DNA of 64,000 nucleotides, taken from an uncultured Candidatus Binatia bacterium. GTDB lineage: Bacteria > Desulfobacterota > Binatia > UBA9968 > CAXXLF01. The stretch covers positions 672,001 to 736,000 of the forward strand of contig OZ244621.1 of NCBI GenBank assembly GCA_965218425.1. The letters are read 5' to 3'. Every line of letters begins with the position of its first letter. Positions within the stretch are counted from its first letter, which is position 1. Made by a program: the position numbers. This document shows positions 45,001 to 48,000 of this stretch, one piece after another.

Positions 45001-48000
45001 GAGCAGCCGGTACTGAATTAGAAAGCTTGGCATCACTCTAAGATATTTCCCAAATGGATAAAGGGCAAACCAAAATCAATGAAGGACTATGGACGGCCTT
45101 CACGTGCAAGAGACCTTAAGTGACACTACCGTTGGGTTGACATAACTCCCACGTTGGCGAATACTGTTTACACCCGACGAGGACAAACATGAGCTATAAC
45201 GCTTGGTTTCAATGTATCAACGGCTGTCCCGGACAGTTCAGCTTGCTCGAGAGCATCTACCGCTGCCCCTCCTGCAACAACCTCCTAGAGGTGCAGCACG
45301 ATATGGAAGCACTCAAGACGAGGGCTCCTTCCGCATGGATGAGGCTCTTCGACGATCGCTTACATCAAAACGAGTATCCCTACGGTTCAGGAGTTTGGGC
45401 CAAGAAGGAATGGGTGGTCCCCTTCATCGATAACGAGAACATCGTATCCACCTATGAAGGGAACAGCAACCTGTTTTGGGCAAACCGATACGGCAAGCAG
45501 ATCCACGTGGAGGACCTTTGGGTCAAGCAATGCGGCAACTCGCATACCGCATCCTTCAAAGACCTGGGCATGACGGTGCTAGTCTCCGTGGTCAAGCAAA
45601 TGATCGCCAATGGCTCACCCATCGATGTGGCGGCTTGCGCCTCCACAGGAGACACTTCGGCGGCGCTGGCTGCCTATTGCGCCGCAGCAGGGATACCCGC
45701 AGTGGTATTGCTTCCACGCGACAAGGTGTCACCCGCCCAACTGGTACAACCGCTGGCCAACGGCGCCCTCGTGTTATCCCTGGACACGGATTTCGACGGC
45801 TGCATGGCCGTGGTGCAGAAGATCACCGCTGACCCGCGTGTCTATCTGGCAAATTCCATGAACAGCCTGCGAATCGAAGGTCAGAAGACCGTGGCCATCG
45901 AGATCGTGCAACAGTTTGATTGGGAAGTGCCCGACTGGATCGTCATCCCCGGCGGCAACCTCGGAAACGTGAGCGCCCTGGGTAACGGATTTCTCATGCT
46001 CCACGATCTCGGTCTGGTTTCCAAGCTGCCGCGCATCTGCGTTGCACAGTCTCAAAACGCAAACCCCCTCTATCGCTCGTTCCTGAAGGGCTTTGAAAGC
46101 TTCAAACCCATGACGGCGAAGATGACCCTTGCCAGTGCCATACAAATCGGGAACCCCGTCAGCTATCAACGCGCCATTCGAACCCTGCAACGATTCAACG
46201 GCGTGGTGGAGCAGGCCTCGGAACAGGAGCTTGTGGATGAGTCCGCGCGCGCGGACCGCACGGGCATGTTCAATTGTCCTCACACAGGGGTTGCTTTGGC
46301 GGCACTTCGAAAGCTCGTGGACCGAAAGATCATCCGATCCCATGAACGAGTGGTGGTGATCTCCACCGCTCACGGGCTCAAGTTCGCCGATCAGAAGATC
46401 GCCTATCATCAAAGCAGTCTAGAGGGCATACGCTCGAGTCATGGCAACAAGCCCGTGGATATGAAACCCGATGTAAAGCCTGTGACAGACGCCATTCAGC
46501 GGCATGTGGAGAGGGTGCGACTCCTTGAAGGGTAATGAAAGACCGAAAGACCGAAAATAGCGGTACGCCGTCGCCAACCCATGGAACCGAGGGTACCAGG
46601 AAAACTCCCAAGGACGAACCTGGAACCGCCAGTGGATCACCCGCGCAGGCGTGCAAGGAAAAGAGAGGGATCAGTACCCTTGCCGTGCATGCCGGTGAGC
46701 CACACCCAAAGCCAGGGAACGCTCTTGCCACACCCATTATCCAAACCGCCACCTACACCTTCGCCGACACTGAGGAGCTCAGCGCTCATTTTGAACGACG
46801 CATCGAACGTGAAGAATACGGCCGCTACGGAAATCCGACTCAGCGCACCGCCGAGCGAAAGTTAGCGATTCTCGATGGCGCCGAGGATTGCCTTCTATTT
46901 GCGAGTGGAATGGCCGCCATCACAACAACCCTCTTCGCCGTGCTTTCGCGGGGCTCCCATGTGGTGGTGACGGATGATTCTTACCGTCGCACCCGTCAGT
47001 TCTTGACCCAGATCCTGCAGCGCTACGGCATCGAAGTGTCTACCGCACCCGCGGGCGACTATGTGGCCATGGAGGATGCGATCCGTCCCACGACCCGGGT
47101 CCTCCTGAGCGAGTCCCCAACAAACCCCTACAACTATGTTCTCGACATGGAACGGTTTTCCGAAATTGGCAAGAGGCATCGGGTAAAGACCATCATCGAT
47201 GCCACTTTCGCGACTCCTTTTAACCAGCGCCCCCTAGAGTTCGGCATTGATCTGGTGTTCCATTCTGCGACTAAATATTTGGGTGGACACAATGACCTGT
47301 TGGCTGGAGCGGTTCTGGGATCCGAAGCCATTATCGATGGGATCCGGTCCCTACAAGCCGTCACTGGGGCCGTGGTGGATCCCTTCGCCGCCTACCTCCT
47401 GGTTCGCGGCCTCAAGACCTTTGCGCTACGGGTGGAGCGGCAAAACGCCAATGCTCAGGCCCTTGCAGAGTTTCTGGCCAAGCACCCTCGCATAAATGCA
47501 GTTCATTACCCCGGTTTACCCAGCCACCCCCAGCACGAGGTGGCCAAACGGCAGATGAAAGGTTTCGGTGGGGTGGTTTCCTTCGAGGTAAAAGGAGACC
47601 AAAAAGCCACCTCCCGCATCGTGGACTCGTGTCGCATTCCTCAAATTGCTCCCTCCCTGGGCGGCGTTGAGAGTCTGATCGAACAGCCCGCCTTAATGAG
47701 CTTCTATGAGTTCACCACCGAAGAACGCCTTTTGGTGGGGATCAGGGACAACCTGATCCGATACTCGGTGGGCATCGAAGATGTGGAAGATCTCATCGCC
47801 GATCTCGCCAACGCCCTCGACCAACGGTAACTCACTCACGACGAGACCCGATCCATCCTAATCTCGTGTTGACATCAACAAACCTTATCGAATAGTGTCT
47901 CTCTGACCAATCCTTAGAATTAGATTTCTATATATCCGCAAGGGGAGGAAGTCCTATGCCCACCATAGATGCTGATGCCCATGTTATCGAGACAGACCAC

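Follow-up and report, generated by a model that had tools for sequence, protein, structure and literature searches.

A plant-clade cystathionine gamma-synthase-like gene overlapping thrC, and the repeated loss of metM, in an order of Candidatus Binatia

Introduction

The synthesis of methionine from O-phosphohomoserine (OPHS) through cystathionine gamma-synthase (CGS) is taught as a feature of plants. The first bacterial route from OPHS is reportedly the thiocarboxylate pathway of Streptomyces MetM and MetO, which is credited to work by Hasebe in 2024. Accounts of the plant pathway describe a CGS step that uses cysteine and is followed by a beta-lyase (PMC11350084, PMC13257386), with flux to methionine being set by S-adenosylmethionine (SAM) activation of the threonine synthase TS1 (PMC2694679). 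A phosphohomoserine sulfhydrylase activity in plants is mentioned in PMC5120207, where Thermococcus kodakarensis TK1449 is proposed to act on OPHS, either as a CGS/CBL or as a sulfhydrylase, and MetBX of the Xanthomonadales is described as bifunctional in GapMind 2026. MetM is presented in the same source as a homologue of threonine synthase (ThrC) that works together with MetO, Mec and MoeZ to convert OPHS to homocysteine (GapMind 2026), while the S. albulus metM gene is noted as being preceded by a SAM riboswitch (PMC12172450).

Here, a 64,000-nucleotide stretch of contig OZ244621.1 (the window), from the genome of an uncultured Candidatus Binatia bacterium (G000; a single contig, 97% complete), was analysed at a locus where a survey of the genome had proposed a plant-like use of OPHS for methionine. 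The CGS-like protein encoded there belongs to the same clade as the plant enzymes (tobacco CGS; Arabidopsis CGS1), and in both settings OPHS would be shared with a plant-type threonine synthase. It differs from them in having neither a transit peptide nor an MTO1 element, in being operonic with thrC, and in having no cystathionine beta-lyase partner that could be found in the genome. With TK1449 and MetBX it has in common that a single PF01053 enzyme is needed for homocysteine and that no partner lyase is evident; however, TK1449 is archaeal, and MetBX uses O-succinylhomoserine with MetA, unlike the OPHS use proposed here. As with Streptomyces MetM/MetO, homocysteine would be obtained from OPHS without an acyltransferase, and a SAM riboswitch is associated with a moeZ-metM-metO-cysM operon. 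The Streptomyces-type MetM, in contrast, has the ThrC fold and depends on a sulfur-carrier protein, and in this order it represents the route that is being lost.

Results

The thrC and PF01053 genes, which the survey had reported as overlapping, were confirmed in the window with one base common to both (Table 1), and the latter is indeed the only full-length PF01053 member of the genome. The promoter match upstream is weak, two having been found where 1.8 are expected by chance, and no riboswitch was detected in the thrC leader, nor any Rfam match anywhere in the window. ThrC passes TIGR00260 and has Arabidopsis TS1 as its best solved relative (567 bits across 430 residues, the next scoring 183). 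Since the hom-homK operon of this genome contains no thrC, the window copy is probably the housekeeping ThrC. The protein is closer to homologues from Rokubacteria (75-79%) than to that of family f3 of its own order (64%), which points to transfer of the thrC-CGS pair as a unit, in one direction or the other. Plant-type thrC is not specific to this pairing, since 27 of 28 family-f3 genomes carry it without a CGS-like gene.

Table 1. Positions of the cassette genes and of motifs within them, numbered along the window
Feature	Position	Strand	Remarks
Plant-clade threonine synthase gene thrC	45189..46535	+	448 aa; PLP lysine K124
Plant-clade CGS-like PLP enzyme gene (PF01053)	46535..47830	+	431 aa; proposed O-phosphohomoserine gamma-replacement enzyme
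One-base stop/start overlap TAATG	46533..46537	+	Fits translational coupling
Sigma-70-like promoter match (TTGACA, 17 nt, AATACT)	45137..45165	+	24 bases before thrC
E94-Y-G-R-Y98	46814..46828	+	Aligned to tobacco CGS E107-Y111
Y150-R-R-T153	46982..46993	+	Aligned to tobacco Y163-R-K-T166; presumed phosphate pocket
PLP lysine K247	47273..47275	+	Tobacco K261

Cassette ThrC lies in the same sequence clade as the SAM-activated Arabidopsis TS1 (PDB 1E5X, 2C2B), and the two were compared at ten TS1 positions which are taken here to be SAM contacts. The query matches TS1 at seven of them (P, Y, G, S, N, L and K141), and these are near-invariant in 55 bacterial rows with the exception of K141 (45 of 55); the differences are A126 to T, F127 to Y and N147 to E. 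Together with the lack of a riboswitch on the cassette, the seven shared positions make a plant-like SAM control of ThrC plausible by analogy.

The best solved relative of the CGS-like protein is tobacco CGS (386 bits, against 342 for the next), with methionine gamma-lyases ranking second by sequence, and it shares 46% identity with a named plant CGS and 51% with that of Micromonas. A 50-row tree separated a clade of 35 rows, comprising the query and plant and algal CGS, from 15 other PF01053 rows with support of 100/99, those 15 being unnamed and the tree having no characterised bacterial MetB, MetZ or MetY as a named row and no row for TK1449; a 144-row FastTree gave the same split at 0.94-0.96. 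Seven rows taken as eukaryotic nest within the clade, three of them named (a land plant, Micromonas and a cryptophyte), and a Myxococcales protein is sister to the eukaryotic rows in the 50-row tree (93/91). Members of the clade share the signature Y-R-[RK]-T, with Y-G-G-T or similar being found outside it. The nearest named relatives of the query (80-86%) are labelled Binatia or Deltaproteobacteria. A sequence search returned close relatives alone.

In tobacco CGS (PDB 1QGN/1I41), positions 107, 111, 165 and 403, and the basic pair at 164-165, are presumed here to bind phosphate. Residues E107, Y108, R110, Y111, Y163, R164, K261, P387, S388, M402, S403 and R423 of the tobacco enzyme are kept in the query, which differs from it in K165 to R, D397 to E and W405 to Y. 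Across 80 rows, position 107 is E or D in all and Y111 is present in 79, one of the 80 rows being a neighbouring paralogue. K261, Y163 and R423 are named as catalytic in CGS (PMC8428831), and the PLP lysine, Y163, R423 and a basic 164-165 pair are all present in the query (tobacco numbering). The query begins with a polar extension of approximately 45 residues and does not contain the MTO1 core motif, which is present in plant CGS P0133 and is described as missing from some plant CGS also (PMC6284425). Among the 25 best NCBIfam models listed (MetB, MetZ, MetY, MetC and methionine gamma-lyase), none reached its cut-off, and P0133 also fails the bacterial cut-offs. A structure model of the query (pLDDT 92) was not discriminating within the family, and Foldseek did not separate CGS from methionine gamma-lyase.

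The genome encodes an aspartokinase, an intact MetH, CysK and a sulfite-reductase-like protein, and the gene after hom, which the survey had called HomK-like, passes TIGR02535 with 554 bits (cut-off 446). The reported lack of a homoserine acyltransferase was borne out, in that MetA gave no match in this genome and MetX was over its cut-off in none of 101 genomes of the order, the best match of this genome to the MetX model being only 22 bits. The four best of the weak MetX matches look, on reading, like signal-peptide alpha/beta hydrolases and were rejected as acyltransferases. HcyBio, searched as the marker of the aspartate-semialdehyde route, and a ThrB orthologue, searched with a single query, were not found in this genome, and PatB was over its cut-off in none of the 101. 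Given HomK after hom, and with MetA, MetX, HcyBio and PatB not having been found, OPHS is the only activated homoserine in view.

Elsewhere in the genome, an operon at C1:3363491-3367170 comprises a SAM-I riboswitch (83 bits, the only one in the genome), a moeZ-like gene, a thrC-like pseudogene, a gene for a MoaD-family carrier (metO) and a cysM-like gene. The pseudogene (C1:3364930-3366180) is labelled MetM from this context, that is, as a ThrC-like gene beside a sulfur carrier and MoeZ and behind a SAM riboswitch. Its decay, also reported by the survey, is real: relative to the copy in genome G004 it has seven lesions (five short indels that shift the frame, a deletion of 20 bases and one nonsense codon), with moeZ, metO and cysM remaining open. 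The region matches contigs from runs of two studies, one of which may be the source sample, over 3,845 bases with no difference, and this identity together with the lesion comparison rules out assembly error as the cause.

The fate of metM was then compared across the 101 genomes, 41 of which carry a CGS-like orthologue at 78% or above (carriers); in 29 of the 30 loci read, this orthologue immediately follows thrC, and the remaining locus is cut by a contig end. metM is missing or broken in 16 of the 41 carriers versus 2 of the 60 non-carriers. The carriers comprise 22 with full-length copies, three with copies cut by contig ends (G084, G090 and G041, rejected as broken for that reason), two with frameshifted copies (G000 and G001, the single frameshift of the latter possibly being a sequencing error) and 14 with no match; a TGA flagged in G019 is terminal, and its copy was not scored as broken. 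Full-length copies are present in 58 non-carriers, and the two without a match are both assembly gaps, the contig of G065 ending at cysM and G052 being without the operon. Among good-quality genomes (completeness of 90% or more, contamination of 5% or less), loss was seen in 7 of 18 carriers versus 0 of 40 non-carriers. Three unpublished genomes (G069, G092 and G074) are included; without these the totals are 15 of 39 versus 2 of 59, with the good-quality counts unchanged. The Fisher values for these counts (5e-6; 1e-4) overstate the association, since the genomes are related. The pattern reported by the survey for 25 genomes is therefore seen again, and more strongly, in the larger sample, in which G014 has an intact MetM, the handles of the two samples not being matchable.

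The operon was read in 12 of the 14 no-match carriers, G097 (operon unassembled) and G092 being left out. moeZ, metO and cysM are kept in all 12 and metM alone has been removed, with seven clean deletions, four differing remnants and one frameshifted copy. A tree built from the cassette proteins of 30 carriers agrees with family and genus; on it, with G097 and G092 scored as lost, metM loss amounts to 11 changes that are not clustered, at least 8 of them being forced by well-supported branches. The reverse loss occurs also, in that G047 and G080 have the cassette thrC and an intact metM with no CGS-like gene; losses in both directions are the pattern expected of two interchangeable enzymes. 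Repeated, gene-specific loss confined to carriers upholds the proposed displacement of MetM by the CGS-like gene. The displacement is incomplete, since 25 of 41 carriers keep metM (full-length or contig-cut), and reversible, and it does not extend to MetO, as the survey had supposed, given that the rest of the operon persists in every loss inspected.

All 21 loci that encode canonical MetM and have sufficient upstream DNA possess a SAM-I riboswitch, as do both recent metM pseudogene loci, 3 of 11 metM-deleted loci (237-653 bases upstream; gone from the other 8) and one of seven open metM copies bearing N305D and further substitutions; two loci lacking upstream DNA are left out of these counts. 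A pooled relaxed-selection test on MetM was uninformative, moeZ showing the same shift (5.0% versus 1.5-1.8%). The retention of moeZ and metO in 12 of 12 losses, together with a JAB-domain (Mec-like) candidate at C1:2718755-2719258 (E 2e-6), would suit a scheme in which the CGS-like enzyme steps into the place of MetM and takes sulfur from the MetO thiocarboxylate, and such a scheme would account for the missing lyase. It is nevertheless highly improbable, since CysM beside metO is enough to explain the retention, SAM control has disappeared from most of the operons after metM deletion and, to our knowledge, no fold-type I enzyme of the PF01053 family uses protein thiocarboxylates. Scarcely credible is the replacement of MetM by another ThrC-like protein (C1:70142-71380, 37% to MetM), with the cassette being incidental. 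This protein has the same fold family and passes NF006050 as MetM does, but its gene adjoins one for a 968-aa oxidoreductase-like protein rather than a sulfur carrier, and matches of 36-40% are present also in non-carriers, which never lose metM.

The plant-like two-step route envisaged by the survey was not borne out in that form, since a lyase could not be found for it. No second PF01053 gene, and hence no MetC or other cystathionine beta-lyase, was found in this genome, and 12 of the 14 MetM-less carriers searched are likewise without one; in the other two it adjoins a cystathionine beta-synthase gene, forming a CBS-CGL pair. The order's second PF01053 gene was rejected as MetC on the same ground, following as it does a cystathionine beta-synthase and being missing from this genome. 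That no cystathionine beta-lyase was found suggests that the CGS-like protein most likely works as one enzyme.

Orthologues in the best 80 loci come from Binatia, Rokubacteria, Chloroflexota, Myxococcota, Planctomycetota, Latescibacterota, Tectomicrobia, Fibrobacterota and others, and plant-type thrC precedes the CGS-like gene in 28 of these loci; cultured carriers include Nannocystis sp. RBIL2 and Bellilinea caldifistulae. Outside Binatia and Rokubacteria, 17 of the 47 loci scanned, from a total of 58, have a SAM riboswitch immediately before the CGS-like gene or its operon, and none of the 14 Binatia and Rokubacteria cassette loci scanned has one. Orthologues with a riboswitch are predicted to be SAM-repressed. 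Neighbouring genes encode aspartokinase (four loci, one with a fusion to Hom), Hom (one) and MetF (two), together with a cystathionine lyase-like protein in seven Planctomycetota and plant-type ThrC in seven Latescibacterota. Along with carrier-confined metM loss and clade membership, the riboswitches on orthologues support the survey's central claim that OPHS is used for methionine.

Despite this agreement with a biosynthetic role, the MetM-less relatives, the present genome included, might be methionine auxotrophs that rely on salvage, with the PF01053 enzyme being a catabolic lyase or having an unrelated role. Methionine gamma-lyases are close by fold and second by sequence, and the genome is decaying elsewhere: one intact-looking sat remains, with a PAPS-reductase-family neighbour, and a second cysH-sat pair has been fused, and so broken, by a deletion, with IS elements nearby. 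The loss of one of two sulfate-activation loci suggests that genome decay with methionine uptake is possible. Auxotrophy is considered unlikely, however, as it does not explain why metM is kept in 40 of 40 good-quality non-carriers, SAM-repressed orthologues and coupling to thrC fit biosynthesis, the tree places the enzyme with CGS, and MetH is full-length in each of five MetM-less genomes examined (in one of them a stop lies at the match end).

Among 50 carrier genomes outside the order, MetX is over cut-off in 11 and MetA in two. A MetM orthologue is present in three of the remaining 37 and borderline in two more, which leaves 32 with neither MetX nor MetA over cut-off and no MetM orthologue, a figure that falls to 29 without three mid-scoring MetX-like cases. 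The 13 with MetX or MetA raise the possibility that acylated homoserine is the substrate of the clade's enzymes in some hosts. In Planctomycetota, MetX is found in 3 of 12 carriers versus 40 of 139 non-carriers; it is as rare without the clade as with it, so that its absence alone proves nothing there, and MetX absence was abandoned as clade-specific evidence. The 13 genomes also favour a reading in which the enzyme, whether a CGS or a sulfhydrylase, acts on O-acyl-homoserine from an acyltransferase which the MetA and MetX models miss, and plant CGS is said, after Hacham in 2003, to have a broad substrate range. For the present genome this would be very unlikely, given the low score of its best MetX-model match, the lack of an acyltransferase among the neighbours scanned, the 32 outside carriers (or 29) in which neither an acyltransferase nor MetM was detected, and the fact that the enzyme replaces MetM, which is described as an OPHS enzyme (GapMind 2026).

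Discussion

Taken together, the sequence data make it very probable that the CGS-like enzyme turns OPHS into homocysteine. There is about an even chance that it does so as a one-enzyme route, either sulfhydrylating OPHS directly with sulfide or combining synthase and lyase activities, while a plain CGS working with an unrecognised lyase is possible, though a good deal less favoured. Direct sulfhydrylation is considered at least as likely as plant-like transsulfuration.

The genes, clade, residues, losses and riboswitches are observed; the substrate, the sulfur donor, the way the flux runs and the activation of ThrC by SAM are proposed. Aspartate would be converted to OPHS by aspartokinase, Hom and HomK, and the OPHS would be shared by two co-translated enzymes, with plant-type ThrC leading to threonine and the CGS-like enzyme exchanging the phosphate for a thiol to give homocysteine, which MetH would then methylate. 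On PLP, OPHS would form an aminocrotonate intermediate to which the thiol adds at the gamma carbon, this being the established chemistry of the family. The cassette may have entered the order early and made the resident thiocarboxylate homocysteine synthase MetM redundant; metM would have decayed many times since, with moeZ-metO-cysM staying for cysteine synthesis and SAM activation of the cassette ThrC taking the place of riboswitch control.

Each kind of enzyme was known already, and what this locus contributes is a correlated loss that is specific to the MetM gene and involves its riboswitch. A literature search found no report of OPHS use by a bacterial CGS of the plant clade, although older key papers might mention it; plant-like CGS in Chloroflexus may, reportedly, feature already in the work of Gophna in 2005, Hacham in 2003, Ferla and Patrick in 2014, or Hasebe in 2024. 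In the portion of GapMind 2026 consulted, a one-step route from OPHS and sulfide does not appear, and the step tables of that source could bear on novelty. A broader proposal is put forward tentatively, with somewhat less than even confidence in its parts jointly: that the clade is a widespread bacterial OPHS sulfhydrylase, one-step and spread over eight phyla or more; that the CGS enzymes of plants and algae arose inside it; and that the thrC-CGS cassette is a bacterial, SAM-controlled branch point between threonine and methionine, with ThrC activation replacing the riboswitch.

Repeated one-gene loss of metM is the closest to genetic evidence that is available for an uncultured group. If the proposed use of OPHS is correct, many soil and sediment bacteria without MetA and MetX would use a further route to methionine rather than being auxotrophs, annotation tools would have a definable family, recognisable by a simple signature, to work with, and bacterial relatives would be added to plant CGS, some of them in cultured hosts. 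A short enzyme with no MTO1 element and no need of acyl-CoA could, in addition, serve methionine fermentation.

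Threonine synthases and the surroundings of the pair

Across the 101 genomes of the order, plant-type threonine synthase was present in 68 and a 368-aa type, which sits within hom-thrC-homK in genome G002, in 23; only G086 possessed both, and the two types are thus nearly mutually exclusive. A second, 412-aa ThrC-like gene, coupled to a gene for a 968-aa FAD/Fe-S oxidoreductase-like protein, was observed in G000, the genome of the window, and the same arrangement occurs in G001, G003 and G004. With respect to sulfate activation, the sir-cysH-sat-cysG operon of G000 is broken by a deletion, after which the beginning of cysH is fused directly to mid-sat, whereas both genes are whole in G001; G000 also has a second sat with a neighbour of the PAPS-reductase family.

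Within the window, a divergent gene encoding a PMT_2-family membrane glycosyltransferase lies upstream of the thrC/CGS-like pair; after it comes another, short gene that looks similar and may be truncated. Two stretches of catabolic genes, which have no relation to the pair, encode solute-binding-like proteins in tandem together with a permease, as well as a Rieske/LigXa oxygenase, an amidohydrolase, a luciferase-like monooxygenase and one subunit of a molybdopterin oxidoreductase. Two transposases were also noted, one IS630-like and split across two ORFs (HTH and DDE_3) at 50626-51716, the other of the DUF772/DDE type at 56170-57633.

Coordinates of features in G000 and at individual loci (L numbers)
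Feature	Location	Strand
PMT_2-family glycosyltransferase	window 42742-45036	-
Catabolic genes	window 35248-40719	
Catabolic genes	window 47956-55162	
Transposase	window 50626-51716	
Transposase	window 56170-57633	
412-aa ThrC-like and oxidoreductase-like genes	G000 C1:70142-74324 (L046)	
sir-cysH-sat-cysG, broken	G000 C1:767140-772651 (L213)	
Second sat and neighbour	G000 C1:2202115-2204248	
Insertion-sequence ORF	L045:12235-13254	
SAM-alpha riboswitch, Latescibacterota	L088:4818-4893	
SAM-alpha riboswitch, Latescibacterota	L105:4817-4892	
SAM-alpha riboswitch, Latescibacterota	L109:4821-4896	
SAM-alpha riboswitch, Latescibacterota	L075:4793-4867	

CGS-like genes elsewhere

At four Latescibacterota loci a SAM-alpha (SAM-II type) riboswitch is immediately 5' of the CGS-like gene, being placed between thrC and that gene in three. 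Seven Planctomycetota loci (L100, L113, L114, L117, L121, L123 and L125) have, downstream of the CGS-like gene, a gene resembling a cystathionine lyase of either the gamma or the beta kind, a candidate complete transsulfuration operon. Among individual proteins, P0121 (795 aa), in which a cystathionine beta-lyase-like half is fused to a plant-clade CGS half, is probably eukaryotic; P0135 (632 aa) is a CGS from a cryptophyte and is extended at its C-terminus, the extension being described as CBS-domain-containing in the name of a cluster member.

Substitution at MetM position 305

An N-to-D change at MetM position 305 (G004 numbering), inside the SIAIGNP motif, recurs in nine genomes (G000, G001, G017, G019, G077, G079, G083, G085 and G013; loci L045, L176, L178 and L234-L239), and a moeZ-metO-cysM tree from which G000 was left out forces at least four changes at this site. 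Eight of the nine carry the CGS-like gene, the exception being G013, which lacks any PF01053 gene and in which a search for the two thrC types found neither. At L045, an integrase-like insertion-sequence ORF (family judged by eye), apparently degenerate, lies just 5' of the SAM riboswitch. Open D-type copies have 22-45 substitutions at ~311 conserved sites, as opposed to 3-18 in the other carriers of family f2, and 6/7 are missing the riboswitch. Arabidopsis TS1 has D at the matching site. The D-type MetM may reflect either decay or altered function.
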